This document shows, piece after piece, positions 36,752 through 62,713 of a stretch of 64,000 nt of DNA; within the stretch, counting starts at the first letter, position 1, and each line of letters begins with the position of its first letter. The notes under the pieces are model-generated. The model was not told the origin of the DNA and did no database searches. It saw only the letters and a list, made by a program, of their open reading frames with translations. Source of the stretch: Gemmatimonadales bacterium (GTDB taxonomy: Bacteria > Gemmatimonadota > Gemmatimonadetes > Gemmatimonadales > GWC2-71-9); contig JBFJCP010000001.1 of NCBI GenBank assembly GCA_041615815.1, forward strand, positions 192,001-256,000. The letters run 5' to 3'. Position numbers and translations under genes: made by a program.

Positions 36752-38762
36752 CCTCCTCCTGCTCGCGAGCGCCGCGCCCACGGCTACCGCCCAAGACGCG
36801 GCGGTGGTGGACGCGGTGGCAGCGATCCTCGCGACCGAGGACGCCCGCCGGTACGATCGCGTCGTACTCGAACAGGGCGCACGACACGAAGCCCCTGTCA
36901 TTCGGCGCCGCGCGGTCCTCGCCATGGCCCGTATCGGTGACCGCCTTGCCGTCCCGACCCTCTTGACCCTCCTCGCGGATCCGGACAGCACGATCCGTCA
37001 AGACGCCGCGTTTGCACTGGGCCAGCTCGCTGATCCGGCCGCGGTTGCGCGCTTGCGGGAACTAGTGCTGGCCACTCCCACCCCCGATCATACACAGCTG
37101 CACGCGGAAGCCGTGTCCGCGCTCGTGCGGATTGGGGGTTCCGACGCGGCCAACATTCTGAGTGAGCTCATGACACGCTCTGGCACGGCAGGGTCGGCGA
37201 GCCCGCTCGCTCCGTCGCTCACTCGCGCGCGGCGCGAGGCGTGGCGCCTCCACTCCCACGCCCCCATCGCGATTCTCACCCAAATGGCGCAATCGGCCCT
37301 CCCCACCGTGCGGCACGCCGCCGTGTATTCGCTGGCCAGGCTGCGTCATCCGCAATCGTTACCAGTGCTGGTTCGAGCCACCGACGATCCCGATCCGGCC
37401 ATCCGCGCGCTCGCGGCTCGCGCCCTCGTCAAGCGCACAGCCGACTCCGCGGGTCAGGATCCCCGTGACCTCGCCGAGCGCGTCCGCAGGCTGGTGGACG
37501 ATCCGGACCCCACCGTCAGGATCCAAGCACTCCGCGCGCTGGCGACGTACGAGAGTCCGCAATTCGGCCGCACCGCGCAGGACGCCACCGCTGACGCCAA
37601 CCTGCACGTCCGCCTGCAGGCGCTGGCGACCGTCGGCGTCTTGGGCGGGCCGGACGCCGCTCGCGTGGCACGCGAGTACACGCAAGCCGGTCCGTTCGCG
37701 CTCCGGTATCGAGCCCTGCTCAGCCTGGCGCAACTCGATGGTCGGGAGGGGCGCGAGCGTGCCCTCACGTGGGTGCGGGACCCGGCCTGGTTTCGCCGAG
37801 CGGCGGCGGCCGAAGCGTTGGGATTGGCTGGTGGAGATACCGCGTTACTGTGGCTCGAGCGACTCGTCGAGGACCCGGACGGCCGCGTGGCGGCCCAGGC
37901 GTTCGCAGTCCTGCGGCAGGCAGACGCCACCCGGGCCTCGTCGCTCGCGCGTGCAATGCTAGTCCACCCCGATCCCGTCGTCCGCACGTTCGCAGCCGAG
38001 CACCTCGCCTCCGACCCCAACCGGTCCGATGTCGATCGCCTGGTGGACGCGTATGGCCGGGCGCGCGACGATACAATCCCTGACGCGAGGATGGCCGCCG
38101 TCGCGGCACTGGGGTCCATCGCAGCCGAGGGACTCGCGGCACGCGTGGCCGTCCAGGAAGCGCTGTTTGGCCGATTCCCACGCAGCGACGATTACCTGGT
38201 GCGACGCGTTGCGGCGGAAGCCATACCCGATGCGGAAAGCCGCTGGGGACCCGTTGCCCCGATGGCGACGGGGCGGGAGATCGGCGACTATCGGGAGATC
38301 GCCCGCCGGCTCGTGCTGCCGGCTGCGCGGGGAGAACCGCTCCCAACGGTGACGGTCGAAACGGAGCGAGGCCGCCTCGTCATCGAGCTCTTTGCCCACG
38401 AGGCACCGATGACCGTCAATGCCATCCTGCGGCTCGTTGACCGTCGATTCTACGACGGGCTCACGGTGCATCGCCTCGTTCCGGGTTTCGTGCTGCAAAC
38501 GGGCGATCCCAGAGGCGACGGGTGGGGCGGACCGGGCTTCACGCTCCGAGACGAGGTGAGTCGCCGGCCGTACGAGCGCGCAACGGTCGGGATGGCGCTG
38601 TTCGGTCCCGACACCGGCGGCAGCCAGTTCTTCGTGACCCTCGTGGAACAGCCGCATTTGGAGCGGACCTACCCCGTGGTCGGTCGCGTCGTCGACGGCG
38701 TAGACGTGCTGGAACGCATCCTCCCAGGAGATCGCATTCGGACCGTGCGGAGGGGACGATGA
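36681..38762 (+). CDS. Exported HEAT-repeat protein fused to cyclophilin-type PPIase
   Basis: Many HEAT repeats; HRLVPGFVLQTGDP and DTGGSQFF motifs; start uncertain (overlaps upstream gene). Confidence 0.85.
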   Translation: MLSPACPAKFAIGSFPFPIRFACSLLLLASAAPTATAQDAAVVDAVAAILATEDARRYDRVVLEQGARHEAPVIRRRAVLAMARIGDRLAVPTLLTLLADPDSTIRQDAAFALGQLADPAAVARLRELVLATPTPDHTQLHAEAVSALVRIGGSDAANILSELMTRSGTAGSASPLAPSLTRARREAWRLHSHAPIAILTQMAQSALPTVRHAAVYSLARLRHPQSLPVLVRATDDPDPAIRALAARALVKRTADSAGQDPRDLAERVRRLVDDPDPTVRIQALRALATYESPQFGRTAQDATADANLHVRLQALATVGVLGGPDAARVAREYTQAGPFALRYRALLSLAQLDGREGRERALTWVRDPAWFRRAAAAEALGLAGGDTALLWLERLVEDPDGRVAAQAFAVLRQADATRASSLARAMLVHPDPVVRTFAAEHLASDPNRSDVDRLVDAYGRARDDTIPDARMAAVAALGSIAAEGLAARVAVQEALFGRFPRSDDYLVRRVAAEAIPDAESRWGPVAPMATGREIGDYREIARRLVLPAARGEPLPTVTVETERGRLVIELFAHEAPMTVNAILRLVDRRFYDGLTVHRLVPGFVLQTGDPRGDGWGGPGFTLRDEVSRRPYERATVGMALFGPDTGGSQFFVTLVEQPHLERTYPVVGRVVDGVDVLERILPGDRIRTVRRGR

Positions 38763-41590
38763 GACGCCGGTGGATTGCGCTGCCCGGGTGCTGCCTGTGG
38801 CTCACCTTCGCCGCGCCCCCGGCCCGGGCGCAAATCGACTATTTCGGACAGAACAAGGTGCACTACCGCAACTTCCAGTGGCGGGTCCTGCGGGGTGCAC
38901 ATGTGGATTTGTATTACTACGCCGAGGAGTCCGAGCTCGCGCGCGCGGCGTTGGAAGCCGCCGAACGCACCGTTCGAGAGCTCGAATGGAAGTTCGGACA
39001 CACGCCGACCGCTCGGATCCCGCTCATCGTGTACGCGTCTCATGCCCATTTCGAGCAGACCAACCTCGTGCCATTCGTCCCGCCCGAGGGGCTGCTGGGC
39101 GTCACTGAGTTCTTACGGCGGCGGGTCACGCTCCCATTCAACGGGAACTACGCCCAGTTCCGGCACACGCTGCAGCACGAACTCGTTCACGCCTTTCAGC
39201 TGAGTCTCCTTGCCGAGACGTATCGGCGGCACCCCAGGGGGCGGCGACCCCGTATTCCCCTCTGGTGGAGCGAGGGGCTCGCCGAGCTGTGGTCTGGTGG
39301 TGAGGACACCCGAGACGACATGCTGCTCAGAGAGCTCACGATCGCGGGGCGCCTCCCAACGCTCGAGCAGTTGACCTACACCGTGAGCGGGGTGGTGTAT
39401 CCCTTGGGAGGCGCCATTCACCGGTGGCTGGCCGAGCGCTTCGGTGAATGGCGGGTGGCGGTCTTCTATCGGGACCTGTGGAAATACCGGACGTTTGCCG
39501 AGGCATTGGAGGACGTCTATGGGGTGCCGCTCGACGAGATCGAGAACGCGCTTCGCTACGACTTCCGACGCCGGTATTTCCCAACGGTCACCGAGCGACG
39601 TCCATTGGACGTGAGCGCCGAACGTCTCGTCGAGCGCGGGAGTCGTCCCGTCGCCTATGGACTCGCCGGCGACTCAACAACGCGCATTCTGTTCCTATCG
39701 GGTCGTACTGGCGCGGTCACCATCTACTCGACGCCGCGGGACCCATCTGATCGGCCCAACGTGGTGCTCCGCGGTGAGCGCTCGGCCGAGTTCGAGTCGC
39801 TCCATCCCCTTGCCTCTCGGTTGGACGTCCGCGGGGGTGTAGCCGTCTTCTCCAGCAAATACCACGAGCGGGACGCGTTGTTTTTTTGGGATCTCGCGCA
39901 GGAACGCGTCGTCGGACGCTACCAGTTCCCCGAGCTGGTGTCGATACGCTCCCCCTCGTGGGCGCCGGACGGTGAAAGCGTCGTCATGAGCGGACTTTCC
40001 CGCGCCGGGTACGCGGACCTCTACCGGGTCCAGCTGCCCCATGGTCACCTCGAGCGCTTGACCGCGGACCGATACGACGATCGCGATCCCAGTATCAGCC
40101 CAGACGGCACGACGGTAGTGTTCGCGTCCGATCGGACGCTTTTTGGATCCGGCGGCGCGTTGAATCTCTGCCTCCTGGACCTCGCGTCCCGGACGGTGCG
40201 GCCCCTCACGTTCGGACCGTGGCGCGACGAAAGCCCGCGGTGGGGAGACAACGGTCGTATCTACTTCACGTCCGATCGTGCGGGCGTGTTCGATATCTAC
40301 TCCGTCGACTCGGTCGGAATGGGACGTCGAGAAACGGTGACATTGACCGGAGCATTCGACCCCCAGTGGCTGTCCGACACACAGGAGCTGCTGTTCTCTG
40401 GCTGGGCGGGCTCGTCGTTCCACGTGTACCGGTCCCGCGCCGATGCTGTGCCCTCTGCCCCGACATTCGAACTGCCCGATTCGGCCCGCTTAGGCTGGGC
40501 ATGGCCGGAGCTGACGCAGCCCCTGGCGTTTGAGCTGGAGCCGGTGCCATACGAGCGCCGCCTCAGTTTGGACGTCGTCGCGGGGGATGCACTCGTGGCG
40601 CCGGGTCTCGGCACGGCCCAAGGAGCGCTCTTTCTGTTTTCGGATCTCCTGGGCGATCACCTCGCGCTGGTGAGTGCCACGACGTTTCAGGGAGAAGGGT
40701 TTGGAGGGTTGATCGACAACCTCAACGGGCAAGTGTTCTACCTCAACCAGAAGCGCCGACTCAATTGGGGTGCAGGTGCTTTCCGTCTGCGGGGCCTGTT
40801 TCTCGAAGGCGATCTCAGCACGGTGTACGAGGAGACCGCCTGGGGCGGGTTTGGCGTCGTCCGCTGGCCGTTTTCGCGCTACGAGCGGATCGAGGGACAG
40901 CTCCGCTTTGAGCGCTCCGATCGGTTCGATCGCCTGTCGAATGATGTGGGGGAGGAGCGCCGGGTGGGCTGGCTCGCGTCCAATTTCCTGAGTTATGTGT
41001 CCGACAATTCCCTGTGGGTTCCCACGGGACCGATCGACGGTCATCGCATCAATCTGACAGCGGGTGTCACCAACGACCTTACGAACGGTCGTTTCGATGC
41101 CTGGACCCTTTCCATCGATCATCGGCGATATCTGCGGCTCGGCGTCCGGTCTGCCTTTGCACTCCGCACGTTCGGCTATGTGACGGGGGGAGCGCATCCG
41201 CGCCGTATCTCGATCGGGGGAACGTGGGGCCTCCGCGGGTACCCGCGCATCGGACGCATCACGGGAACGCGCGCATTCTTGATCAACAATGAGGTACGAT
41301 TTCCTCTCACCGACTTTCTCGCGATCCGGTTTCCGATCGGTGAGCTCCGGCTTCCCGGGATGGAAGGGGCACTGTTCGCCGATCTCGGTGGCGCGTGGAC
41401 TGACGCCTCCACCGATCGCGGGGCGCTCGGCAGCGCCGGGCTCGGCGTGCGCATGCCCATTGGTTTTCCGCTCGTGTTGCGACTCGATGTCGGCTGGCGT
41501 TTTGCACTGGGCGAAACGCGCGGGTATGGGCTAGCTTCGAACGCGATCGGGGGTAGATTCGTAGACTTCTTTTTTGGATTTAACTACTGA
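38759..41590 (+). CDS. Zinc-peptidase / PD40 beta-propeller / Omp85-like barrel outer-membrane protein
   Basis: Signal peptide; FGQNKV; HELVH plus EGLAE; P.WAPDG / P.ISPDG repeats; LRGY motif; C-terminal FFGFNY. Confidence 0.82.
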   Translation: MRRRWIALPGCCLWLTFAAPPARAQIDYFGQNKVHYRNFQWRVLRGAHVDLYYYAEESELARAALEAAERTVRELEWKFGHTPTARIPLIVYASHAHFEQTNLVPFVPPEGLLGVTEFLRRRVTLPFNGNYAQFRHTLQHELVHAFQLSLLAETYRRHPRGRRPRIPLWWSEGLAELWSGGEDTRDDMLLRELTIAGRLPTLEQLTYTVSGVVYPLGGAIHRWLAERFGEWRVAVFYRDLWKYRTFAEALEDVYGVPLDEIENALRYDFRRRYFPTVTERRPLDVSAERLVERGSRPVAYGLAGDSTTRILFLSGRTGAVTIYSTPRDPSDRPNVVLRGERSAEFESLHPLASRLDVRGGVAVFSSKYHERDALFFWDLAQERVVGRYQFPELVSIRSPSWAPDGESVVMSGLSRAGYADLYRVQLPHGHLERLTADRYDDRDPSISPDGTTVVFASDRTLFGSGGALNLCLLDLASRTVRPLTFGPWRDESPRWGDNGRIYFTSDRAGVFDIYSVDSVGMGRRETVTLTGAFDPQWLSDTQELLFSGWAGSSFHVYRSRADAVPSAPTFELPDSARLGWAWPELTQPLAFELEPVPYERRLSLDVVAGDALVAPGLGTAQGALFLFSDLLGDHLALVSATTFQGEGFGGLIDNLNGQVFYLNQKRRLNWGAGAFRLRGLFLEGDLSTVYEETAWGGFGVVRWPFSRYERIEGQLRFERSDRFDRLSNDVGEERRVGWLASNFLSYVSDNSLWVPTGPIDGHRINLTAGVTNDLTNGRFDAWTLSIDHRRYLRLGVRSAFALRTFGYVTGGAHPRRISIGGTWGLRGYPRIGRITGTRAFLINNEVRFPLTDFLAIRFPIGELRLPGMEGALFADLGGAWTDASTDRGALGSAGLGVRMPIGFPLVLRLDVGWRFALGETRGYGLASNAIGGRFVDFFFGFNY

Positions 41591-42303
41591 TGAGACAACG
41601 GTTTGCGCTTGACCGCATCGTCCGAGCCCCGTATGTTCTCGTGCTCGGAGCCCTCCTCGTGGCTGGGCTCGGCTGTCGGGCCGGGGTGTCGCCCATCGCC
41701 CCAGTGGACATGCCGGTGCTGGCGCGAGAGGTCGCCGTCGCCTGGGTCGACTCGCTGGTCCCGGCGGCGCCGATGCGATTCGACGTACGGTGGACCGTGG
41801 AAACCCAAAAAGGACATGTGCGGGGCCGGGCGTCCGCACGGGTCGTGCCCCCCGACTCGCTCCGGTTCGATTACCGGGCACCCTTCGGGCGGTCCGGGGC
41901 AGCCGTCCTGATCGGGGACTCACTCGTGTGGGCGAAGCCCGAGGACCGCAACCCCGTGCCGCCGGCCCCGCTGTTTTGGGCGGCGCTGGGAATCGCGCTC
42001 CACCCGCCGGCCGGCGGGGCCATCACCGGTCGAGCCCTGACGACCGAGCGGGCGTGGCGCTACGCACATGGACCGGACACGTTGACCTACGTCGTGGCGC
42101 TTTCGGGGAGCCGTCGCCTTCGTGCTTTGTTCCGCCGAGAGGGGGAAGTGGTTGGCACCGTGGAAACGGCATTCGAAGACGGGGCGCCCATTCCCAAGGA
42201 CGCCAAGGTGGTGTTTCCCAGCTCTGGTGCGCTCTTTCTCATGACGATCCAAACCGTCGAGTCGCTCACGTCGGTGGATTCCACTATCTGGGCGGAACCG
42301 TAA
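41590..42303 (+). CDS. Hypothetical lipoprotein (possibly LolA/LolB-like beta fold)
   Basis: GLGC lipobox; 'PDSLRFD...PFG' motif; beta-rich. Confidence 0.6.
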   Translation: MRQRFALDRIVRAPYVLVLGALLVAGLGCRAGVSPIAPVDMPVLAREVAVAWVDSLVPAAPMRFDVRWTVETQKGHVRGRASARVVPPDSLRFDYRAPFGRSGAAVLIGDSLVWAKPEDRNPVPPAPLFWAALGIALHPPAGGAITGRALTTERAWRYAHGPDTLTYVVALSGSRRLRALFRREGEVVGTVETAFEDGAPIPKDAKVVFPSSGALFLMTIQTVESLTSVDSTIWAEP

Positions 42304-42304
42304 G

Positions 42305-42799
42305 GTGCGTTTGGCGATCGTGGTGCTGACCCTCGTGACGAGCACGGGATGCCTGTACGGCTTTGCCGGCGGTGGACTTCCCAGCCACGTGCGGACCGTC
42401 GCCATCCTGCCGTTCGACAATCAGACCGCCGAACCCACGCTGACACAGGAGGTGTTCGACGCGATTCGGGAGGCCATGGAGGGTCGGTTGGGACTGCGTT
42501 CGGCTGCGGAGACGGACGCCGACGCGATCGTGCGGGGAACCATCGTGCGGTATCAACCGGATATTCCGCTTTCGTTCCGAGCGGGGCAAACCGCAGGCGC
42601 GGTGTCGGTCACGCGACGGCGGATCCAGCTCACGATCAACGTCGAGATCTTCGACCAGCGGGAAGGACGTGCCCTCTGGGAGCGTTCGGGGCTCACGATC
42701 GATGGCGAGTACGATCCTCCGAACGAGAGCGAGGGCAGGGAAGTGGCCTTGGAGAAGCTGGTGTCCGACATCGTCGACGGAGCACAATCGCAATGGTGA
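42305..42799 (+). CDS. LptE-family lipoprotein
   Basis: TGC-LYGF lipobox, TVAILPFDNQT and ADAIVRGTI motifs; C-terminal helix ending in W. Confidence 0.75.
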   Translation: MRLAIVVLTLVTSTGCLYGFAGGGLPSHVRTVAILPFDNQTAEPTLTQEVFDAIREAMEGRLGLRSAAETDADAIVRGTIVRYQPDIPLSFRAGQTAGAVSVTRRRIQLTINVEIFDQREGRALWERSGLTIDGEYDPPNESEGREVALEKLVSDIVDGAQSQW

Positions 42800-46080: not shown

Positions 46081-46473
46081 ATGCATCGAGCGCTCGTCTG
46101 CACCAGCCTCGTCGTCTCCGTCACCTGCGCCTCGAGCACCCAAACCGGCGAGCCGCGCCCGAGCCGAAGCGTGATCACGGCCGATCAAGTTGCGGCGGAA
46201 GATCTTCAGGGAGCCACTGCTTGGGAGGTGGTTGAGCGGTTTCACAGCGATTGGCTCTTGGGCTCCCCCCCCACGTCCCCCAACGATCCCCCTAGGCTGT
46301 ACCCCGTCATTTATGTCGACGACATCCGCATGGGCGACCTCGAGACGCTGCGGACCGTGCCGGGGGGCGACATTCGGGACATTCGCCTCATTGCGCCCAG
46401 GGACGCCATCTTCCGCTACGGAGTGGGCCACGATGGCGGCATAATCGCCATACGCACCAAGCTGAAACACTAA
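46081..46473 (+). CDS. Stand-alone TonB-receptor plug-like lipoprotein (copy 1)
   Basis: SD GGAGGT; lipobox-like SVTC; PVIYVDD, DIRDIR and YG...GGIIAIRTK plug signature; no barrel. Confidence 0.72.
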   Translation: MHRALVCTSLVVSVTCASSTQTGEPRPSRSVITADQVAAEDLQGATAWEVVERFHSDWLLGSPPTSPNDPPRLYPVIYVDDIRMGDLETLRTVPGGDIRDIRLIAPRDAIFRYGVGHDGGIIAIRTKLKH

Positions 46474-46533
46474 TCTCCGTGGGGACTTGTGGTTACGGTA
46501 CCTCGCATATACATTCCGGCGGTTGGAAGCCGG

Positions 46534-46551
46534 TTCGAACGTACGTTCGAA
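46534..46551. promoter_or_regulatory. Perfect 18-bp palindrome, candidate operator (SOS-box-like)
   Basis: TTCGAACGTACGTTCGAA in the intergenic region upstream of susC1. Confidence 0.55.
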
Positions 46552-46870
46552 TAACCCGGTCGCCCGGGAACCGGCGACCTGACAACGAGTAGCATTGCCA
46601 GAGCCCTGCTTTGGGCACCGCGGGCGGTCCTTACCCTCCCAGTAGAGGCGTCGCGGTAACTGGTTCATTAAAGAGACAGCGAGGTCGCGACACCGGGATG
46701 ACCGGTGACGTTGGTTTGTGCTTATGACCCCATTCGTTTGGTGCGCGCTGTGGATACGCACCGCAATCAGCTCCCTCCCTTTCTCCCATTTCGGGGGTTC
46801 CGCCTATGATCCGTCCCATTGCTTTCGTTCGATTCTCTCTTTCGTCAACCCAACAGTGAGGATGCGACAC

Positions 46871-49800
46871 ATGAGTTTGCGACGTGCTATCCTCGCCGCG
46901 GGGACCGTGTTCGCGCTGATCCTGAGCCTACCGTTGGTAGCTCAGGCGCAGCAGGGAACGATCCGCGGCACCGTGACGGCCCGGGCCACCGGCGAAGCAC
47001 TGCCGGGCGCCAGAGTGCAGTTGGTAGGCACCACCCGGTTCGTCGCCACCGCCTCCGACGGGAGCTACGAGCTCAGCGGAGTGCGGGTAGGCCAAGTGCA
47101 GGTGCGCGTGGCCATCATCGGGTACCTCTCACAGACGGCGAGCCTCGAGGTCAGTGCCAACCAGACCGCGACGGTGGATTTCCAGCTGTCCGAGTCGGTG
47201 CTCACGCTCGACGCCGTGGTGGTCACGGCGCTCGGCGAGCAGTCCGCCCGCGAGGTGTCCAACGCGATGTCATCCGTGAACGTGGCAGATCTCATGGACG
47301 CCGCGCCGCAGGTGAACATCACGGAAGTCCTCCAGGGCAAGGCCCCCGGCGTGACCCTGCTTCAGTCCTCCGGTACCACGGGGTCTGGGCACTCGATCAA
47401 GATCCGGGGCAACTCGTCCATCAACCTGAGCAATACGCCTCTCATCTACATCGACGGCGCTCGGGTGGACAATGACAACAACGCCAACCCCCAGGGCTTT
47501 GGCGTCGGTGGTCAGGACGCCAGCCGCCTCAACGACATCAACCCTTCCGACATCGAGCGGATCGAGATCGTCAAAGGTCCCTCCGCTTCGACGCTCTACG
47601 GGACCGAAGCTGCCGCTGGCGTGATCCAGATCTTCACCAAGAAGGGCCGCCGCGGCGCCGCGCCGGAGTTCAATTTCCGCACGGACCTGGGCAACAACTG
47701 GAAGAACGAGTACACCTTTGCACCCAACGTCTGGAATCCGCTCTCCTTCGGGTTCGGGTTTGACACGCTCTACGTGATGAACCTGCTGGAAGAGGCGGAC
47801 GCCCGCGGTAACTATGGGAGTCCCTTCCGCAACGGCTTCATGCAGACGTACGCCGGCTCCATCCGCGGTGGTACGGATGACGTGACCTACTACGTCTCGG
47901 CCGAGTTCCAGGACGAAGAGGGGATTCTGCCGAACAACCAGATGACCCGCTACTACGGGCGCGGCAATTTCAACATCAGCCCCGCCCCAACGTGGGACCT
48001 CCAGGCCAGCGTCGGTTACACCAGCAACTTCCTGTCGCTGCCCGACAACGACAACAACGGCTTTGGCTACATCGGCGTGGCCCAGGTGGGCTTCCCGTGG
48101 AACGCCTCGATCATGGCGTCCGACCCGATCGCGGGTGGAAGTCCGATCCTGACATGTCCCTTCGCCGTCGAGCTGGCGCGTCTTGGCGCCGGCACCCTGG
48201 CGGACAATAGCCCCGGCGGCGCGGCCAATGCATGTCCTGAGGCGGCCGGGTTCGGTGGCCGGACCTTTGCCGATGTGGCCTCGCTGCAAAACCGGCAGGC
48301 CGTTGAGCGCATGACCGGGAGCACGACGGCCCGGTGGCGTCCCACCGAGTTCTGGAGCAACCGCTTCACGCTCGGTTATGACCTCATCGATCAGCGCTCG
48401 AGCACGCTCGTTCCGGTGAACCCGGATCGGCCCTTTGGCTCGCTCTCCGAGGGAGACCGAGATCTGTCCACGTTGACCGAGCGTAATCTGACGGTCGACT
48501 ACTCGGGCTCGCTCAACTTTTCGTTTGGCGACGTGGGGACGGTCACGTCCTTCGGGTTCCAGTTCTTCCGTGAAGTGCAGGAGCTCGTACGGTGTAACGG
48601 GGGTGAATTCCCGGCCGGCGCCACGACGTGTTCCAATGCTGTGACGACGGACGGCTTCGAGACGTATGCGGAGAACAAGACCCTCGGTCTTTACATCCAG
48701 GAGCAGTTCAGCTGGATGGACCGGATCTTTGTCACACCGGCTGTCCGGTTCGACGAGAACAGTGCCTTCGGGCGGAACTTCGACATTCAGGTATACCCCA
48801 AGGTGGGCGTGTCGGCCATCGCCATCGATGAGCCCATCGGCCCCCTCGATCAGCTGAAGTTGCGTGGCGCGTGGGGACGCTCAGGCAAGGCCCCCACCAA
48901 CACGGCGTCCTTCGAGACGTTCAATGCGCGCGGCTTCGCTATCGGCCTGCAGGACGCCCTGGGCGTCGTGCCGCAGCAGCCGGGTAACCCGGATCTCCAA
49001 CCCGAGCTGGGCGAGGAATGGGAAGCCGGTTTCGATGTTGGTTTGCTCAACAACCGGGTGGGCCTCGAAGCCACGTACTACCAGCAGAAGACGCTGGACG
49101 TGCTGGTGACCAGGCCGCAGGCACCCTCCTTGGGCTTCCCCAACGCGGTGTGGGACAACTTGGGTCGGATGGACAACCGAGGCTTCGAGTTCGCCCTGAA
49201 CGTGAATGCGTTCAATCAGCCCAATCTGCGGTGGGATTGGACCATCAACTTCGCCACCAACGACAACGAGATCAAAGAGCTGGAGCAGTTCGTCCCGCTG
49301 TCGTTTGGCGCGAGCCAGCGGCACCAGGAGGGCTTCCCCTTCGCCGCGTACTTCACCGAGATCATCACGTTGGATGCCAATGGTGATCCAATGGTGGTCC
49401 CGTATGACGACGCCCTGGATATCCTGGATGGCGTCAATGACGATCACCAGCTTGTCGGACAGCCCACCCCCGAGTGGGAGGGTTCGGTCTCGACGTCGAT
49501 CAACTTCCTGCGGCACTTCACGCTGTACGCCTTCCTTGACTTCAAGGGCGGGCATCAGCTGTTCAACTCCACCGAAGAGTTCCGCTGCGGCTTCTTGGGC
49601 GGCGGCGAGAATGGTGGCGTGTGCCCCGAGATGTTCGAGAAAGACGCCAACGGTGACTTCACGGCGGACGCCAAGATCAAGCAGTTTGCTTCGGCGATCC
49701 AGTCTGAGTTCCCGTGGGTTGAGGACGCCGACTTCATGAAGCTCCGCACGCTCTCGCTCAAGTTCCAATTCCCGGAAGAGTGGGCGCAGATGCTGCGGAT

Positions 49801-49969
49801 GAAGCGGGTGAGTGTGTCGTTCGCCGGATACAACCTGAAGACCTGGACGGGGTACTCGGGCGCCGATCCCGAGATCAACAACTTCGGCCAGAACGAGGTG
49901 ATCCGCGCGGACTTCCTGACGCTACCGCCACAGCGGCGGTTCGTCGGAACGTTCTCGATCACGTTTTAA
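46871..49969 (+). CDS. SusC/RagA family TonB-dependent transporter (1)
   Basis: Signal peptide, N-terminal extension, LDAVVVTA TonB box, plug motifs (NPSDIERIEIVKGPSASTLYG), C-terminal Phe. Confidence 0.93.
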   Translation: MSLRRAILAAGTVFALILSLPLVAQAQQGTIRGTVTARATGEALPGARVQLVGTTRFVATASDGSYELSGVRVGQVQVRVAIIGYLSQTASLEVSANQTATVDFQLSESVLTLDAVVVTALGEQSAREVSNAMSSVNVADLMDAAPQVNITEVLQGKAPGVTLLQSSGTTGSGHSIKIRGNSSINLSNTPLIYIDGARVDNDNNANPQGFGVGGQDASRLNDINPSDIERIEIVKGPSASTLYGTEAAAGVIQIFTKKGRRGAAPEFNFRTDLGNNWKNEYTFAPNVWNPLSFGFGFDTLYVMNLLEEADARGNYGSPFRNGFMQTYAGSIRGGTDDVTYYVSAEFQDEEGILPNNQMTRYYGRGNFNISPAPTWDLQASVGYTSNFLSLPDNDNNGFGYIGVAQVGFPWNASIMASDPIAGGSPILTCPFAVELARLGAGTLADNSPGGAANACPEAAGFGGRTFADVASLQNRQAVERMTGSTTARWRPTEFWSNRFTLGYDLIDQRSSTLVPVNPDRPFGSLSEGDRDLSTLTERNLTVDYSGSLNFSFGDVGTVTSFGFQFFREVQELVRCNGGEFPAGATTCSNAVTTDGFETYAENKTLGLYIQEQFSWMDRIFVTPAVRFDENSAFGRNFDIQVYPKVGVSAIAIDEPIGPLDQLKLRGAWGRSGKAPTNTASFETFNARGFAIGLQDALGVVPQQPGNPDLQPELGEEWEAGFDVGLLNNRVGLEATYYQQKTLDVLVTRPQAPSLGFPNAVWDNLGRMDNRGFEFALNVNAFNQPNLRWDWTINFATNDNEIKELEQFVPLSFGASQRHQEGFPFAAYFTEIITLDANGDPMVVPYDDALDILDGVNDDHQLVGQPTPEWEGSVSTSINFLRHFTLYAFLDFKGGHQLFNSTEEFRCGFLGGGENGGVCPEMFEKDANGDFTADAKIKQFASAIQSEFPWVEDADFMKLRTLSLKFQFPEEWAQMLRMKRVSVSFAGYNLKTWTGYSGADPEINNFGQNEVIRADFLTLPPQRRFVGTFSITF

Positions 49970-50037
49970 CTGACGAGGCCAACCTTCCGGGGTCGCAGGC
50001 GCGGCCCCGGGGGCTGCCATAGATCTGGAGATTACGT

Positions 50038-51447
50038 ATGCGATTTGATCTGAAGCCGATTAAGAAGGTCCTGATGGTGGGCCTCGTCGGCGCCATCGTC
50101 GGATCTGTCGGCGCCTGTGGGTTTTCCGACCCGCTGCGTGTCCAAGATCCGGGAACGCTCACGGATGATGAGCTGACGGGCGTGGGCGCGGTTCCCGCCA
50201 CGGTGAACGGCATGATCGGACAGTTCCAGGAAGCCCTGGACGATTACGTCCGATACTCCTGTCTGTTTACCGATGAGTGCATCCTTGCCGGCACGTTCCC
50301 GACGCGGGTCGAGGTCGAGAACCGCCGGATCACCACCGCCAACGTGTCGTTGGACGATGAGGTGTACGAGCCGATCCACACGGCCCGCTTCCAGGCGGAC
50401 AACACGGTAGAGCAGTTCCAGACGATCGACCAGAGCGATCCTGAGTTCGCGGGCGTCGTCGGTAAGATCCAAGAGGGAATCGTTGCTGGATTCCTATACG
50501 GGGGCTACACCCGGGTCCTCTTGGCGGAGCTGTATTGCGAAAGCGCCATCAATGCCGGTTCCTACGTCTTTTCGGACGAACGGATGCGCGACGCGCTGAC
50601 GATCCTGGAACAGGCAGAGACGGAGGCCAACAATGTTGGTCTCTCGAGCTACGCCAACGCCGCCATCGTGGGACAGGCCCGCGCACATCTGTGGCTTGGC
50701 GAAGATGGCAACGCCGCGGCCGATGCAGCGCGCGTGCCGGCCGGGTTCGTATTCAACGCGAATTACTCCGAGAACGACGACGCCAGCTTCAACGAAATGC
50801 ACTCCTCGAGTTGGGGCCGCGGCGGCTGGGTCATCCGGTGGACCGTGGGTGACGGTACCCGAGGCGACCGGAACAACGAGCGCTTTGGTCAGCAGCTCGT
50901 GACCCAGGGTGTAAACGTGACCGACTCGTTCGACGAGTGGGTCAATATCGGCCTGATCGATCCGGATCCGGGCCCGAACTTTGTGGCCTTCAACAGCGCA
51001 ATTCCGGTGAAGCTGCAGCTGAAGTACCGCGCCGGGACCGCGCCCATTCGGATCGCCTCCACGACGGAAGCCGATTTCATCGAGGCCGAGGCCGCCATCC
51101 GCGGCAGCGATTTCGCGACCGCCAACACGATCGTGAACGGCTATCGGGCCACGTGGACCGACGAGACCACCGGCAATCCACTCCCGGCTATCGATTATGC
51201 AGCGCTGCCGGACCTGCAGAGCCGCCTCATTCAGCTCGCGCAGGACAGGAACCGCGACATGTGGCTCGAGGGTGAGCGACAGGGCACGTTCCGGCGGTTT
51301 TTCCGTCGCGACGGCATCGACCTGTACACGCCGGTCACGGCAGCCGCCACCTTCAACCAGATCTGCTTCCCGGTGCACCAGCAGGAGCTGGATACCAACA
51401 GCAATCCTGCCAACTGCCCCGATCCCTCCGTGCCCTGCACGCCGTAA
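50038..51447 (+). CDS. SusD/RagB family lipoprotein (1)
   Basis: VGAC lipobox, follows SusC, FIEAEA and LEGER motifs, C-terminal FP...E..N. Confidence 0.85.
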   Translation: MRFDLKPIKKVLMVGLVGAIVGSVGACGFSDPLRVQDPGTLTDDELTGVGAVPATVNGMIGQFQEALDDYVRYSCLFTDECILAGTFPTRVEVENRRITTANVSLDDEVYEPIHTARFQADNTVEQFQTIDQSDPEFAGVVGKIQEGIVAGFLYGGYTRVLLAELYCESAINAGSYVFSDERMRDALTILEQAETEANNVGLSSYANAAIVGQARAHLWLGEDGNAAADAARVPAGFVFNANYSENDDASFNEMHSSSWGRGGWVIRWTVGDGTRGDRNNERFGQQLVTQGVNVTDSFDEWVNIGLIDPDPGPNFVAFNSAIPVKLQLKYRAGTAPIRIASTTEADFIEAEAAIRGSDFATANTIVNGYRATWTDETTGNPLPAIDYAALPDLQSRLIQLAQDRNRDMWLEGERQGTFRRFFRRDGIDLYTPVTAAATFNQICFPVHQQELDTNSNPANCPDPSVPCTP

Positions 51448-51479
51448 CGCAGGTTCACAAAGAGGCAGAGCGCGTAGTC

Positions 51480-51514
51480 ACCGGGCGCCCCTTCGGGGGC
51501 GCCCGGTTTCTTCT
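51480..51514 (+). terminator. Intrinsic terminator after susD1
   Basis: CCGGGCGCCCC-TTCG-GGGGCGCCCGG followed by TTTCTTCT. Confidence 0.85.
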
Positions 51515-51661
51515 CGCCGCTCGCTTGCGTCGCCCTCAGCCAACTCCCAGTTTTCTGACCGGCACCAAGGCTCGCTTTTACGGCACGCCCCATCCCGCCC
51601 TTCCCACCCATTACGCGGATCCGGCGCCGAGTGGGAGGCGGATGACACCGCGGAGGACTCC

Positions 51662-52075
51662 ATGTACTACCGCCGTCTGAATGTCGCCTCACTGGCCCTC
51701 GCCGTCATCGTTCTCGGGTGCGGTAGCGGGGGGGGAGCCGACACCGCAACGGACGGACCGACCCCCCAACGATCCGGTCGCAATCGGTTGACCCAGGCCG
51801 AGATGTTGGAGACCACGGCCACGACCGTCTACGAAGCGGTGCAGCAGCTGCGGCCGACCTGGTTCACCCCACGAGGTACCGATCCGAGTAGCGGTGACCC
51901 GCTCATCCCGGTGGTCTACGTGGATGGCGTGCGAGCGGGAGACCTCGAGTTCCTGCGGCAACTGCGCATCGAGGAGGTCGAGCGCCTCCGCTACATCAAT
52001 GCGCGGGACGCCACCACGCGCTGGGGAACGGGGGTGCCCGGGGGCGTCATCGAGGTCTCGCGCGCTCGAGGCTAG
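51662..52075 (+). CDS. Stand-alone TonB-receptor plug-like lipoprotein (copy 2)
   Basis: SD GGAGGA; VLGC lipobox; LRPTW, PVVYVDG and ATTRWG...GGVIEV motifs. Confidence 0.78.
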   Translation: MYYRRLNVASLALAVIVLGCGSGGGADTATDGPTPQRSGRNRLTQAEMLETTATTVYEAVQQLRPTWFTPRGTDPSSGDPLIPVVYVDGVRAGDLEFLRQLRIEEVERLRYINARDATTRWGTGVPGGVIEVSRARG

Positions 52076-52155
52076 CGCGCGCGAAGTCGGCCGATCGCGC
52101 TGGCGGCCGCCGCCGTGACTGGGTACCATTCGACGCGGTTGACACTCCCGCACCC

Positions 52156-52229
52156 CGGGGCGTGGCGCAGCTCGGTAGCGCGCCTGGTTTGGGACCAGGA
52201 GGTCGCCGGTTCAAATCCGGCCGCCCCGA
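52156..52229 (+). tRNA. tRNA-Pro (TGG)
   Basis: Cloverleaf CGGGGCG/CGCCCCG, CCTGG-TTTGGGA-CCAGG, TTCAAAT T loop; CCA not encoded. Confidence 0.96.
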
Positions 52230-52261
52230 CTGCGAGTCCTCCGCCGAGGGAAGAGGAAGGT

Positions 52262-52735
52262 ATGCAAAGGCCAATCAGCTGGGCGCTCGCCCTCGTCCTG
52301 GCCTCCTGTTCGGGAGGCACGCCGTCACCCGACGGTCCGAGTCCCCAAGTCTCCTCTCGCAACGCCTTGGCTGGATCGGATCTCCGAGCCACGGGCGCCT
52401 CGAGCGTCTACGACGCGCTGAAGCAGCTGCGCCCCACCTGGCTCACTCCGCAGCGCTCGTTGTCACGCGAAGGCGCACTCGCGGGAGGAGCCTCGTCGTC
52501 AGGCCGCAACGAGGCGGACCCCCGCCAGGCAACCTCGGGGTCCGCAGGGGCTAGCTCGGGGGTCGCGTTGGCCGTGGTCCTGGATGGCATCCGCGTGGGC
52601 GGTGTCACGTACCTCCAGGGATTATCGGTGGAAGGCGTTCAGGTGATTCGTCTCATCGAGGGCACGGAGGCCGCACGACGTTGGGGCCCGCAAGCCGGTG
52701 CCGGAGTGATCGAGGTCGTCCGTGGCGGCTCCTGA
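52262..52735 (+). CDS. Stand-alone TonB-receptor plug-like lipoprotein (copy 3)
   Basis: LASC lipobox; VYDALKQLRPTWL, VVLDG and AARRWG...AGVIEV motifs. Confidence 0.72.
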   Translation: MQRPISWALALVLASCSGGTPSPDGPSPQVSSRNALAGSDLRATGASSVYDALKQLRPTWLTPQRSLSREGALAGGASSSGRNEADPRQATSGSAGASSGVALAVVLDGIRVGGVTYLQGLSVEGVQVIRLIEGTEAARRWGPQAGAGVIEVVRGGS

Positions 52736-57709: not shown

Positions 57710-60700
57710 ATGTCCCCTGCACGTAGTTGGCTTGCTCGGTTCCTTACCGCGGGCCTCGTTGCGGTGTTCTGCACCGCGACGGCGGCCGCGCAACAGGGAA
57801 TCGGCACTGTCCGGGGCGTCGTGACTGATGATGTCAGTCGACGCCCCATTTCTGCGGCACAGGTTTATGTGCCGGGCTTGGAGGCCCTGGGAACGATTAC
57901 GGACTCCGAGGGCCAGTTCGAGCTCAACCTGCCTCAGGGTGCCCACCGGCTCACGGTGCGCCGCGTGGGGTACGCGACCAGCGGCTTGAACATCACCGTC
58001 ACCGCCGGCCAGGTCACCGAGACCAACTTCCAGCTGAAGCAAGTCGTGATTCTGCTGGATGAGGTCGTCGTGACCGGTGCCGGAGCCGCGACCGAGAAGA
58101 AGCGACTCGGCAACACCGTCGCCTCCATCAAGACCAGCGAGCTCGAGAACGCTCCCACGGCAAACTTCTCGGAGCTGCTCGCTGGACGTGAGCCCAACGT
58201 CTCCGTGATTCCCTCCGGGGGCTATGCAGGCGAAGGCGCACGCATTCGCATTCGAGGATCCGCCAGCCTCTCGCAGTCCAACGAGCCGATCATCTACGTG
58301 GATGGTATTCGCGTGGATAACGGCGGCGGGATTCAAGGAACCAACGTCGGTTCCGGCGGTGGCGGTGGCACGTCCCGTCTGGACGATATCAACCCCGACG
58401 CCATCGAGCGCGTGGAGATCCTGAAGGGCGCCGCTGCTGCGACACTCTACGGCACGGAAGCCTCCAACGGCGTGATCCAGATCTTCACCAAGAAGGGTGC
58501 GCAGGGTGCGCCGAAGTTCGACTTCTCGCTCGAAGTCGGGGCCACGAGTCCCAATTCGGATCGCATCAAGAAGAACACGGGATTCGTCCGGGCCGGAGAC
58601 GAGGCTCGGCTCTCCCAGTTCTGGGCAAATTCTCCGATCTGCCGGAATCTGTCCGGTGGATCCTGCGCTAGCATGTCGGCCTATGACATCTTCGAGGTCG
58701 ACTACTACGACGCACTCTTCGAGACCGGCTTCAACCAGGCCTACTCCGGCTCGGTGAGCGGTGGGTCCTCCATCTTCACGTACTTCGTGTCCGGCCGCTT
58801 CTCCAGCGACCAGGGCCAGATCACGACCAAGCCGTTCGACGGCCTTGCCGACGACTTCAACCGCTTGGTTCAGGCGTCGGCCAACATGGAGATCATCCCC
58901 CACGAGAAGGTCCGTCTCCGCATCAACAGCCAGGTGGCCGATGTTGGGCACAAGACCCCGGAGAACGGCAACAACATTTGGGGACTGATCCCCTCGGCGA
59001 TGGATGCGAAACCCGAGCGCGCGACGTGCGATACCTCCTTCGGCAATGGAACGCCGAATGGTGACGGCACGTGCGATCCTGTCGGCAACCCCGAGGGCGC
59101 CACGTTTGCGACCACACGGGAGATTGCGCAGACGTTCATCGAACAGGACGTGCGCCACTACACGTTGAGCCTCCAGACCCAGTACACGCCGGTGGCCGAG
59201 CTCAGCCTCGACGCCACGGTTGGTCTCGACTACACCTCCACGGAGAACGTCATCCAGTGGCCGTTTGCGTGGAACGTCGACGGTCTGGCTGGCGCGGACC
59301 CCTTGGGTAACCGCGGCATCGACAACCGCAATCGTCGTGAGATCACCGTCGAGACGAAAGCCCAGTGGGACGCTCGTTTCGGTGAGAACTTCAGTTCCAC
59401 CTTCGTCGCCGGCGGGCAGGGCTTCATCGCCCGGACAACGCAAAAGGGTGGCTTTGGCGCTGACTTCCCCGGCCCCGGTCTCGGAGTTGCCGGTGCGGCG
59501 GCCAGTCAGTCCGTCAGCGAGTCGTTCCTGGAAGTGGTCAACGCTGGTGCTTTTGCCCAGGAGCAGTTCGGCTTGTATGACGTCGTGTTCTTGACGGGCG
59601 GTTTGCGCTATGACCGCAACAGCGCGTTCGGGGAGCAGACCGAGGGAACGCTGTATCCCAAGGCCAGCATTTCGATCGTGCCCAGCGATCTGCCCTACTG
59701 GAACATCGCGCCGCTGTCCACGTTCCGGGTGCGGGCCGCCTGGGGTAAGTCCGGTCTCCAGCCGGGCGCCTTTGACAAGTTCACCACCTTCGCGGCCACG
59801 GCGTCGGCACTCGGACCAGGCCTCACGCCCGACAATCTCGGCAACGATGCGCTCGAGCCCGAGAAGGCGACCGAGATCGAGCTCGGCGCCGAGTTTGGTC
59901 TGTTCGACAACCGCCTGGGCCTGGACTTCACCTGGTGGGATCGCTCGACCAAGGACGCGCTCTTCTCACGTCAGTTTGCGCCGTCCGGCGGCTTCACCAA
60001 CCAGCAGATCGTGAACATCGGACAGGTGGACGCCAACGGGTTGGAGTTCAACCTCACGGGACTCGTCGTGAACAAGCCCGATTTTAGCGTCCGCTTCTTC
60101 GGTAACGCTGCGTACCTCACAGAAACGGTCACCGATCTCGGCGGATCGCCGCCACTCAAGGTCGGTGCGTCGTATATCCGTTACCGCGCTTGGTTGGTCG
60201 AGGGTTGGTCCCCCGGAGCGTTCTTCGGCAACCGGCTCCTCCCCACCCAGCCCGGTTTCTTTGCGATAGACACCAACGGCGACGGCCAACCCGACAGCGA
60301 AGCCGAAGTGCTGGCGTTCTTCGCCAATCCCGTCTCGAGCGGTTTCAGCTCGTCGGCCATCCGGCCGCTCGTGGAGAACTGCGACGCCAGCCAGTCGACC
60401 CCAGGCCCCCAGAGCGGCCCCTTCGGGTGCTACCTGGGTAAGCCGACACCCGACTGGCAAGGCTCGTTCGGGCTCAACATCGGGATCCTCGGCAACCTTG
60501 AGATCTCGTCGCTGTGGGAGTACAAGGCCGGTAACTTCTTCGTGCACAACCTGACCGATTCGTTCCGCTCGACGCACTCATTGATCGGACGGAACTTCGA
60601 GCAGGCAACCGCGGCGGAGCGCACCTTGGTCGACCCGTCGTCCACCGCACAGGATCGTTTGGCGGCGTGGCGCGTGTTCTCCGAGGAGCTCAAGCACCTG

Positions 60701-61006
60701 GCGCCGCTCAGCGGCCTCAACGCGGTCAGGCCGGCGGACTTCGTACGCTGGCGCGAGCTGAGCCTCACGTATCGGCTCCCCGTCGACTTCGTGCGGTCCA
60801 AGCTGGGACTGCGGTACGTAACGCTCAACGTCGCGGCCCGAAACCTCGCGCTGTGGACGAAGTACGACGGTATCGATCCGGAACTCAACTTGATCAGCCG
60901 CGGCAACGACTCGAACACGGCACAGGGCGACTTTGCCCAGAGCCTGGACGCGTGGGGCATTCCGGTCCCAACGCGGTTTACCTTCAATGTCCGGTTCGGC
61001 TTCTAA
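57710..61006 (+). CDS. SusC/RagA family TonB-dependent transporter (2)
   Basis: Signal peptide, LDEVVVTG TonB box, INPDAIERVEILKGAAAATLYG plug motif, C-terminal Phe; SD AGGAGG. Confidence 0.93.
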   Translation: MSPARSWLARFLTAGLVAVFCTATAAAQQGIGTVRGVVTDDVSRRPISAAQVYVPGLEALGTITDSEGQFELNLPQGAHRLTVRRVGYATSGLNITVTAGQVTETNFQLKQVVILLDEVVVTGAGAATEKKRLGNTVASIKTSELENAPTANFSELLAGREPNVSVIPSGGYAGEGARIRIRGSASLSQSNEPIIYVDGIRVDNGGGIQGTNVGSGGGGGTSRLDDINPDAIERVEILKGAAAATLYGTEASNGVIQIFTKKGAQGAPKFDFSLEVGATSPNSDRIKKNTGFVRAGDEARLSQFWANSPICRNLSGGSCASMSAYDIFEVDYYDALFETGFNQAYSGSVSGGSSIFTYFVSGRFSSDQGQITTKPFDGLADDFNRLVQASANMEIIPHEKVRLRINSQVADVGHKTPENGNNIWGLIPSAMDAKPERATCDTSFGNGTPNGDGTCDPVGNPEGATFATTREIAQTFIEQDVRHYTLSLQTQYTPVAELSLDATVGLDYTSTENVIQWPFAWNVDGLAGADPLGNRGIDNRNRREITVETKAQWDARFGENFSSTFVAGGQGFIARTTQKGGFGADFPGPGLGVAGAAASQSVSESFLEVVNAGAFAQEQFGLYDVVFLTGGLRYDRNSAFGEQTEGTLYPKASISIVPSDLPYWNIAPLSTFRVRAAWGKSGLQPGAFDKFTTFAATASALGPGLTPDNLGNDALEPEKATEIELGAEFGLFDNRLGLDFTWWDRSTKDALFSRQFAPSGGFTNQQIVNIGQVDANGLEFNLTGLVVNKPDFSVRFFGNAAYLTETVTDLGGSPPLKVGASYIRYRAWLVEGWSPGAFFGNRLLPTQPGFFAIDTNGDGQPDSEAEVLAFFANPVSSGFSSSAIRPLVENCDASQSTPGPQSGPFGCYLGKPTPDWQGSFGLNIGILGNLEISSLWEYKAGNFFVHNLTDSFRSTHSLIGRNFEQATAAERTLVDPSSTAQDRLAAWRVFSEELKHLAPLSGLNAVRPADFVRWRELSLTYRLPVDFVRSKLGLRYVTLNVAARNLALWTKYDGIDPELNLISRGNDSNTAQGDFAQSLDAWGIPVPTRFTFNVRFGF

Positions 61007-61034
61007 AACCGGCTACCGCGAAAGCACAGGAGCT

Positions 61035-62399
61035 ATGAACATGCTTAGATCCAAGCTATTGCGCGGCGCCGGCTGGCGAGCACGGGTGACTCCCGTGCTT
61101 GCCGTCGTAGCCGCGTTGGCGTTGGCAGGGTGCGACAATCTGATCGACGTCCAAAACCCCAACAACGTCAACGAAGAAAACGTCAATGACCCCGTTTCCG
61201 CGTTGGCCATTGCGAGCGGCATCCTGTCTGAGGTCCAGGACGCCTGGGAAGAGTCGCTCACGCCCTATTCCACTGCCACAGATGAATTGAAGTGGGTGGG
61301 GTCGCGGGATTCCTGGACGCAACTGGAGCGCGGTGACCTCGGTGACCCCATCAACGAGTTCACCGACGCGGCGTTTCCGGACGTCGGTGAAGCCAGGTGG
61401 CTTGCCGACGAGGGGATCAAGATTCTCGAGGGATTCGATCCGGCGGATTACGACCCGATCAACCTCGCCCAGGCGTACCTCTACGGCGGCGTGCTGTACA
61501 TGTCGATCGCGGACCGCTGGGACGACTTCGTGATTTCGTCCAGCAAGCAGGAGGCGGGACCGCCGGTTGGCGAGGCCAACATGGCGTCGCTGTATGACAC
61601 CGCGGTCGCGTACTTCACCAGCGGGCTCGCGATTGCTGTGAGCGAGGGCAATACGGAGCTCCAGACCCGTTTCCTGGCGCTTCGCGCTGTTGCGCGGCAC
61701 CGTCAGGCCGTCTGGAACGTGGTGCAACCCTCGTTCACGGGTCCCGCACCGGTGTACGTGAGCCTGCCAGCGGCAGCAATTCAGGATGCCAATGATGCGC
61801 TCGCGTTGATCGGGCCGGCGGACTGGCAATTCGGCTTCGTCTACTCCGCCCAGACCCGGACCAACACCATGGCGTTCTGGGTCAACGAGCGCCTGGAGCA
61901 CCGGGTGGACGATCGCTACGGGGTGCCCGATGGCTCGGACAAGACCGTCAATGCGACGGCCCTGCTCGATCCGATCGACGGGACCCCCGACCCGGAGCTC
62001 GACCAGATCATCTTCGACGAGCTCACCTGCTGCGGCGACGAGAGCCCGTTGCGGATCACGTCAGTGCATGAGCTTTACCTGATTCTGGCGGAAGACGCCA
62101 TCGCCACTAGCGCTGACGTGAACGATCCGGCGGCCGTGGGATTCATCAACAGCCTGCGTGCATTGAACGGATTGACACCCTTCAACGCGTTGACCCATGC
62201 GCCGCTCACGGCTGCAGATCACGTGCAGCACCACCGACAGGCTAGCCTGTTCGTGCACGGCGTTCGACTCTCGGACATGTATCGGTTTGGGATCACCGAC
62301 ACGCGGTGGGTAGCGGGATCGCAGGCACTCACATCGCCCGGCGTATTCCTGCCGATCACGACGATCGAGTGCAACGCGAATCCAAACATATCCTGCTAA
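61035..62399 (+). CDS. SusD/RagB family lipoprotein (2)
   Basis: LAGC lipobox, ELYLILAE, INSLR and G.RLSD.YR motifs, C-terminal LPI...E..ANPN. Confidence 0.87.
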   Translation: MNMLRSKLLRGAGWRARVTPVLAVVAALALAGCDNLIDVQNPNNVNEENVNDPVSALAIASGILSEVQDAWEESLTPYSTATDELKWVGSRDSWTQLERGDLGDPINEFTDAAFPDVGEARWLADEGIKILEGFDPADYDPINLAQAYLYGGVLYMSIADRWDDFVISSSKQEAGPPVGEANMASLYDTAVAYFTSGLAIAVSEGNTELQTRFLALRAVARHRQAVWNVVQPSFTGPAPVYVSLPAAAIQDANDALALIGPADWQFGFVYSAQTRTNTMAFWVNERLEHRVDDRYGVPDGSDKTVNATALLDPIDGTPDPELDQIIFDELTCCGDESPLRITSVHELYLILAEDAIATSADVNDPAAVGFINSLRALNGLTPFNALTHAPLTAADHVQHHRQASLFVHGVRLSDMYRFGITDTRWVAGSQALTSPGVFLPITTIECNANPNISC

Positions 62400-62682: not shown

Positions 62683-62713
62683 CTCGACCCCTCCAACCTC
62701 AAACAGACGCCGC

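Follow-up and report, generated by a model that had tools for sequence, protein, structure and literature searches.

The locus described here raises the question of what a plug domain, which normally occludes the barrel of its own TonB-dependent transporter, may do as a protein by itself. The window, that is, the whole 64,000-nucleotide stretch analysed (positions 192,001 to 256,000 of contig JBFJCP010000001.1 from the Gemmatimonadales bacterium assembly GCA_041615815.1), contains a susC/susD pair bracketed by three open reading frames (ORFs) for small lipoproteins, here called mini-plugs 1 (46081..46473, +), 2 (51662..52075, +) and 3 (52262..52735, +). A sequence-only reading had presented these ORFs as paralogues that resemble the plug of the adjacent SusC and carry neither a TonB box nor a barrel, and had proposed that they act as in-trans plugs, decoys or ligand-binding accessories. 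The analysis assigns them to an old family of minimal lipoproteins with a plug fold in Gemmatimonadota, whose members appear to serve SusC/SusD transporters as optional accessories. Both domain and transporter are known, and the literature searched has no description of the lipoprotein as a stand-alone family.

Three Intact Paralogues

The three ORFs translate cleanly into proteins of 130, 137 and 157 amino acids (aa), each is preceded by a Shine-Dalgarno-like purine run, and their GC content at third codon positions (GC3) is 0.75-0.80. Their paralogy, noted earlier from the sequence, is confirmed by a family profile built without the three ORFs and without P0004-P0006, which finds them at E 1.3e-30, 4e-42 and 2.3e-22, respectively, compared with E 54 for the best reversed sequence and no better than 3e-7 for SusC plugs. 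Pairwise identity among the copies is 25-45%. The RP and RG motifs are missing in mini-plug 1. This protein (Cys16) is a divergent subtype adjoining susC on the upstream side, mini-plug 2 (Cys20) is the canonical member and the copy that was folded and co-folded, and mini-plug 3 (Cys16) carries a low-complexity insertion of ~25 residues.

Orthologues of mini-plug 1, 61-64% identical and in the same rph-rdgB-plug-susC order, are found in two genomes of the same genus, and an orthologue of mini-plug 2 (59% identical) follows susD in one. At the position of mini-plug 3, the same-genus locus L181 has no third copy. Because its orthologues share its odd motif, mini-plug 1 represents a subtype and not a product of decay. 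Divergence between orthologues by codon position is 0.25-0.32, 0.17-0.19 and 0.57-0.65, the third position having changed most; the mini-plug genes are under purifying selection and show genus-level synteny. The family profile also finds a fourth paralogue (E 2e-24) on contig C4 of the genome (L001:7484-8155, -), which is fused behind an N-terminal domain, lacks a lipobox and adjoins the gene of a DUF5916/CBM9 protein.

A Plug Fold without a Barrel

Taken singly, the three proteins stay below the gathering cut-off of the Plug model PF07715 (23.9 bits): mini-plug 2 scores 17.3 bits (E 0.007), mini-plug 3 scores 16.1 bits (E 0.016), and mini-plug 1 has no PF07715 match. It is at the level of the family that the likeness to the SusC plug holds. 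PF07715 is found at E≤0.1 in 40/73 family members, and for some relatives a PF07715 label had been precomputed. The 73-row family alignment matches the plug of BtuB at E 2e-5 and, less strongly, SusC chains, and hhalign of the family against SusC plugs gives a probability of 98.6% (E 1.4e-15). The AlphaFold2 (AF2) model of mini-plug 2 has a predicted local distance difference test score (pLDDT) of 90-98 over residues 41-137, and only TonB-dependent transporters are among the Foldseek matches listed for it. The top VIA-align rank is the FyuA plug (Z 7.8, root-mean-square deviation 2.8, 92 residues aligned), where a Z under 8 by itself can reflect a common arrangement. Profile and structure searches of the HHpred and Foldseek type thus both return a plug-like prediction. 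A single-sequence model of mini-plug 1 is uninformative (pLDDT 45), and the structural test covers mini-plug 2 alone, the plug assignment of mini-plugs 1 and 3 being made by the family profile. The family is a TonB-receptor plug fold of ~100 residues carried by small predicted lipoproteins.

These proteins have no barrel, as had been supposed: in 196/210 members no more than 10 residues follow the last plug strand (median 5 residues), and there is no barrel match in Pfam or NCBIfam. The family itself is large and narrow in range. At E≤0.001 it has 8300 representatives at 50% identity, a number whose weak tail will include SusC plugs, and 557 lie below 1e-30. Length is uniform (115-160 aa in 140 of the best 150 representatives), and source labels and record titles are nearly all Gemmatimonadota; the 3/79 titles that name other phyla belong to contigs of 2.6, 3.4 and 16 kb. 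The nearest ESM Atlas clusters are hypothetical proteins of Gemmatimonadota, one of them with the Plug label on 12% of its members. Among the models searched there is no Pfam or NCBIfam model specific to the family, and no NCBIfam match. In a 69-row plug tree, which rests on 110 columns and leaves many forks open, the 31 family rows lie on one side of a branch with a Shimodaira-Hasegawa-like approximate likelihood ratio test value (SH-aLRT) of 100, apart from SusC and other plugs.

Anatomy of the Minimal Plug

Aligned jointly, 175 family cores and 65 SusC plugs show what has been kept and what has been lost. The family core has a median length of 101 aa vs 133 aa for SusC plugs, and two loops of the SusC plug are deleted, of ~14 residues after the PG motif and ~20 residues after the DG.R motif. 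We take these loops to be the outward, substrate-side ones of plug structures. The RG.S, VDG, A...YG and GVI motifs are retained. SusC E281 is replaced by Arg and SusC K284 by S/N/D, and three residues conserved in the family, R64 (96%), D/E116 (96%) and R120 (92%), have no counterpart in SusC plugs. Family cores are also rich in Arg (11.5% vs 6.5%); SusC barrels are acidic, with a median net charge of -26.

Two plug Arg residues have been described as the most conserved barrel contacts (PMC12940499). The Arg of the RG motif, retained in 92% of the family, aligns to the first of these barrel-lock residues, FepA R75; the equivalence to FepA R75 and R126 rests on the joint alignment made here. 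The lock residues cut both ways, since the family keeps one of them and mini-plug 1 neither.

Predicted Lipid Anchor and Location

The mini-plugs consist of a signal peptide, a short linker (median 15 aa, rich in Ser, Gly, Ala and Arg) and the plug core. The lipobox pattern is present in 182/213 family proteins of 100-200 aa, and in most of the other 31 a Cys can be seen by eye; the lipobox Cys is at least 90% conserved. The lipobox of mini-plug 1 is imperfect and that of its orthologues canonical. The reported lack of a TonB box holds throughout the family: a TonB-box-like pattern, self-made and missing about a third of SusCs, occurs in 0/182 family linkers vs 38/60 SusC. A role of the mini-plug type as a TonB decoy is therefore unlikely.

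At least two acidic residues at positions +2 to +7 after the Cys are found in 1/182 family proteins, compared with 47/56 SusDs of the same loci, many of which are orthologues of each other. An acidic N-terminal stretch of this kind is reported as a surface-export signal in Bacteroidetes (PMC5080379). As the motif is nearly absent from the family, the rule borrowed from Bacteroidetes suggests that the mini-plugs face the periplasm at the outer membrane. The missing export-like signal, together with the two deleted loops, weakens the earlier idea of a ligand-binding accessory, at least as a substrate sensor. The acidic stretch right after the Cys in 47/56 Gemmatimonadota SusDs (L033-L171) resembles the Bacteroidetes signal, and by this analogy the Bacteroidetes-type surface-export pathway may extend to Gemmatimonadota.

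Genomic Association with SusC

Co-location with susCD was followed across Gemmatimonadota, where the family is enriched near susC. Among 301 genomes of the phylum, a core match (E≤1e-15, with 14 candidates scored per genome) is found in 162 and SusC in 245, and all 162/162 have SusC; a core member occurs in 0/56 genomes that lack SusC. A raw tally of 219/301 genomes was set aside as it includes cross-hits to SusC plugs. In these counts kin are not independent, and genome G157 is counted only as SusC-positive without a core match.

Proximity was assessed in 80 regions, chosen with preference for long flanks from 150 listed of 1285 strong matches, against 40 control regions offset by 100 kb. SusC lies within 5 kb of 33/80 family loci vs 1/40 controls (17/40 for the family loci that have a paired control), and any TonB-dependent barrel within 5 kb of 35/80 loci vs 4/40 controls, so that the barrel neighbours are mainly SusC (33/35). 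Among the 33 susC-linked copies, 16 lie after susCD on the same strand, 9 lie before susC and 8 are convergent. When the loci are collapsed into 35 synteny groups, a SusC neighbour is found in at least one member of 16 groups and in half or more of the members of 14. A second set gives a SusC neighbour in 12/79 loci, or in 8/39 of those with full flanks, and in five closed genomes 8/19 core sites have a barrel within 5 kb vs 1.4 expected (0/20000 draws). The link to SusC is real but optional.

Several further associations were considered and dropped. The SusCs with a mini-plug neighbour do not form a subtype: they are scattered on a FastTree phylogeny, whose unlabelled rows come mostly from G273 and the source genome, with 18 changes vs 21.3 after shuffling. 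Local duplication from the neighbouring susC is contradicted by the lack of a clear closeness to the neighbour's plug and by the separate plug-tree clade. A tRNA-linked island is not indicated either, a tRNA being present within 2.5 kb in 4/80 family regions vs 1/40 controls.

Co-Folding with the SusC Barrel

The structural compatibility of the two proteins was modelled with residues 36-137 of mini-plug 2 and the SusC barrel of the window, from which the native plug had been removed. The co-fold scores 0.83 vs 0.00 for the best of three controls, passing a mark reached by 116/157 solved complexes and 2/215 mismatched pairs; contacts agree between runs to at least 94%, and the partner pLDDT is 82. 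The barrel contacts alternate along the strands all round the wall, which corresponds to the lumen of the barrel, and include the conserved residues R367, D369, Y383, E453, E514 and R700 (barrel numbering). On the side of mini-plug 2 they include R71, D116, T118, T119 and R120, and 11/18 conserved polar positions lie in the predicted interface. The model indicates compatibility or fit, not binding. As a hypothesis, the in-trans plug put forward earlier gains a plausible route from this result, from the predicted periplasmic location and from reported SusC structures without plug density.

A Possible Mechanism and Its Alternatives

Plug fold, lipobox, the lack of a TonB box, the deletion of two loops, genomic dependence on and proximity to susC, and a steric fit in the model are established; where the mini-plugs reside, what they bind, when and with what effect is inferred. 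SusCD particles without plug density have been reported, and removal of the whole plug has been proposed (PMC7782687; bioRxiv 2026.09.16.752182). A plug-deleted SusC still transports, with its preference shifted to smaller substrates (bioRxiv 2025.11.13.688124). Given the proposed removal of whole plugs and the reported function of plug-deleted SusC, a TonB-insensitive mini-plug facing the periplasm could occupy a vacated barrel. We tentatively favour the reading that the mini-plugs serve as a spare cork for SusC barrels whose own plug has left, although the odds are somewhat against it. Once lipidated, the mini-plug would remain at the outer membrane on its periplasmic side. A SusC barrel might be without its own plug when this has been pulled out in transport, has been lost, or has yet to dock during assembly, and the tethered mini-plug would then enter the vacated lumen from the periplasmic side, its N-terminus oriented like that of the native plug. 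There it would close the open channel, or restrict flow through it, until the native plug is back in place; without a TonB box, it could not be pulled by TonB. Such a cork would serve many SusC paralogues and not one cognate partner. In its specific form, in which a dedicated lipid-tethered second cork enters SusC barrels in trans after ejection of the native plug and sets leak, size cut-off or reset, the proposal is possible but held with less confidence. The mechanism draws on inference and on one co-fold that is prone to memory.

Several observations weigh against a spare cork. Spontaneous plug loss has been called likely non-physiological, with its reset unclear (PMC7782687), and plug-less, lid-less Bacteroides strains are viable (bioRxiv 2025.11.13.688124), so that sealing may be dispensable. 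The second lock residue, K/R in 100% of SusC, is S/N/D in the family, and the subtype of mini-plug 1 lacks both lock positions. The co-fold pass may be a memory of solved plug-in-barrel structures, the native plug having been removed by hand and the controls lacking a cousin plug, and conservation is 0.54 in the predicted interface vs 0.57 for the rest. No core member is found in 83/245 SusC genomes, most copies are not beside susC (47/80; 31/39), and members show no clear pairing with the plug of the neighbouring SusC (mean rank 0.41, 34 pairs). Finally, the domain also occurs in tandem, or fused to soluble or hairpin-bearing proteins, as would be expected of a general binding module.

Part of this evidence is also compatible with a SusC accessory that binds elsewhere, acting as a plug mimic on the periplasmic face or N-terminal extension of an intact SusC, on the ejected plug, or on a plug-recognising assembly or quality-control factor. 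It would account for the same genomic dependence and proximity, for the partial loss of the lock residues, for the family-specific conservation of R64, D/E116 and R120, and for the conserved charged residues E47, R64, R99, E108 and R110 outside the predicted lumen interface. We consider it somewhat unlikely, as no partner surface was identified and the single co-fold run placed the mini-plug confidently in the lumen. Doubtful, too, is a free-standing envelope or small-ligand binding module with a plug fold, near susCD through shared regulation or co-transfer and not through contact. The terminator-like hairpin between susD and mini-plug 2, the 8/33 convergent arrangements among susC-linked copies, the several copies per genome, the conserved locus without susC (10-12 regions), and the tandem copies and fusions to glycine-rich hairpins or to a protein with an N-terminal extension and a TonB-box-like segment would all suit such a module. 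It sits less well with the 0/56 SusC-less genomes (kin not independent), with the enrichment for SusC and not for other TonB-dependent barrels (33/35 barrel neighbours), and with a barrel-lock Arg retained in 92%.

A split transporter, in which a barrel that is naturally plug-less and encoded elsewhere has the mini-plug as its dedicated plug, is improbable. According to a citing sentence (PMC2615193), the in vivo incorporation of FhuA cork and barrel made separately has been studied; Bacteroidota have barrels whose plug is small or absent (bioRxiv 2025.11.13.688124). In the source genome, which is 96% complete, however, all 15 barrels over the PF00593 cut-off carry a plug match of their own, which speaks against a plug-less partner there; a sub-cut-off barrel match on C6 is an 1107-aa protein whose N-terminal region is plug-like by eye, and PF14905 matches in four relatives are uninformative on this point. 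By eye, no plug-less barrel family is prominent among the recurring neighbours, and such a transporter, lacking a TonB box, could not receive energy by the usual route. Hardly credible, lastly, is a descent from 5' fragments of susC, whether decayed or recently duplicated. A frameshifted copy in G273, the nearness of susC and an unrelated barrel-less protein (type B, see below) that nests among SusC plugs might evoke such a descent, but the family has its own signal peptide and forms a separate clade (SH-aLRT 100, 31 rows), and the plug tree, the uniform length and the codon-position divergence given above rule out an origin by decay. With one clade, purifying selection and genus-level synteny, the mini-plugs are not remnants of full-length receptors.

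Relation to Known Systems

The mini-plugs share their fold and the RG.S, VDG.R, A...YG and GVI motifs with the SusC/RagA plug (PF07715, TIGR04056; PDB 8aa4, 6sli, 5fq6). They differ in being separate lipoproteins without N-terminal extension, TonB box and barrel, and in having lost two loops and the second lock residue while gaining conserved Arg/Asp. Among the plugs of BtuB, FyuA, FepA and FhuA, the best sequence match is BtuB and the best structural match FyuA, and the position of the first lock Arg is common; these plugs, unlike the mini-plugs, are a covalent part of the barrel chain and are pulled by TonB. Engineered split FhuA is a precedent for a plug supplied apart from its barrel, but it is a laboratory construct with a cognate plug that has a TonB box and no lipid anchor. 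The split FhuA of Braun and colleagues (2003) reportedly restored activity. The surface accessory lipoproteins of Bacteroidota (SusD lids and glycan-binding lipoproteins) are likewise encoded beside susC; they are surface-exposed with an acidic export signal, which the mini-plug family lacks, and the latter has a plug fold. A likeness to BamP, a Bacteroidota BAM subunit reported to insert into the BamA barrel, was considered; the text of PMC12611786 that was searched does not support a plug-like BamP.

No description of a stand-alone plug lipoprotein family was found in the literature searched, outside of which lie most subscription journals and bioRxiv supplements, in keeping with the sequence-only reading; the available part of PMC11658791 contains nothing on trans plugs. 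Whether the SusC plug comes out of its barrel as a whole, and by what means the channel is closed and reset, is an open question (PMC7782687; bioRxiv 2026.09.16.752182). A natural stand-alone plug, present in 162/301 sampled genomes and in SusC genomes only, should capture the empty-barrel state. Should the spare-cork reading hold, the mini-plugs would represent the first natural gate acting in trans on a TonB-dependent transporter, and would offer a way to learn whether plugs come out of the barrel whole in vivo. Under the rival readings too, the family is large, counting 557 clusters with E below 1e-30 at 50% identity, and belongs to a widespread phylum.

Other Barrel-Less Plugs and Variant Loci

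The source genome encodes five further plug proteins without a barrel, which fall into two other types. Type B is a barrel-less plug lipoprotein with a near-canonical SusC plug (C22:34742-35212, -), and type C comprises barrel-less plugs with a CarboxypepD-like extension (C26:45371-46165; C2:117321-118514; C2:171337-172503; C1:51165-52265). Both are exported like the mini-plugs and sometimes near susCD, one of the five directly following a susCD pair. They differ from the mini-plug family in the near-canonical plug of type B and in a TonB-box-like segment seen by eye in type C, and they lie on separate plug-tree branches, that of type B nesting among SusC plugs. A barrel-less plug of a different type from the mini-plugs follows susD at L154:3133-3990.

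Tandem and fused forms of the mini-plug domain are P0075, P0076, P0077, P0079, P0136 and L086:8690-10216, the fusion partners being CarboxypepD-extension proteins with a TonB-box-like segment, or glycine-rich hydrophobic hairpins around which the mini-plug lies. A search for longer fused forms gave 1/8000 candidates, a weak result. In G273, a family copy beside susC is split over two frames (C1:1443926-1444316, -). A conserved probable lipoprotein of ~150 aa lies between susD and the mini-plug at L038:10334-10777 and eight other loci, which represent one orthologous locus. The conserved mini-plug locus without susC (L053, L060, L062, L072, L073, L077, L080, L098, L106 and L110) holds, by eye, ferredoxin-like and peptidase-like genes.

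Layout of the Locus

The gene order is rph, rdgB/Ham1, mini-plug 1, a gap of 397 bp, susC, susD, a hairpin, mini-plug 2, tRNA-Pro and mini-plug 3. The SusC/RagA TonB-dependent transporter (46871..49969, +; 1032 aa from the ATG at 46871) consists of an N-terminal extension, a TonB-box-like segment, its own plug and a barrel, in this order; it matches Pfam CarboxypepD_reg, Plug and TonB_dep_Rec and passes TIGR04056 (476 bits vs a cut-off of 368). The SusD-family lid lipoprotein (50038..51447, +; 469 aa) has no match in Pfam or PDB sequences as a single sequence, but its alignment matches PDB SusD/RagB (E 3e-25), with PF07980 in 45/56 members. A strong terminator-like hairpin (51480..51507, +; 12 pairs, 11 of them G-C, with a T-rich tail), putative and recognised by a consensus match, separates susD from mini-plug 2. 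The tRNA-Pro (TGG) gene (52156..52230, +) lies between mini-plugs 2 and 3.

Elsewhere in the window, a second SusC and a SusD-like lipoprotein are encoded at 57710-62399, with no adjoining mini-plug within the window and a DUF3179 lipoprotein gene upstream. A run of envelope genes (38522-42799) comprises a PD40 plus Omp85-like protein, a further lipoprotein and LptE. The remaining tRNA genes noted are tRNA-SeC (30338-30434) and tRNA-Arg (62609-62683).

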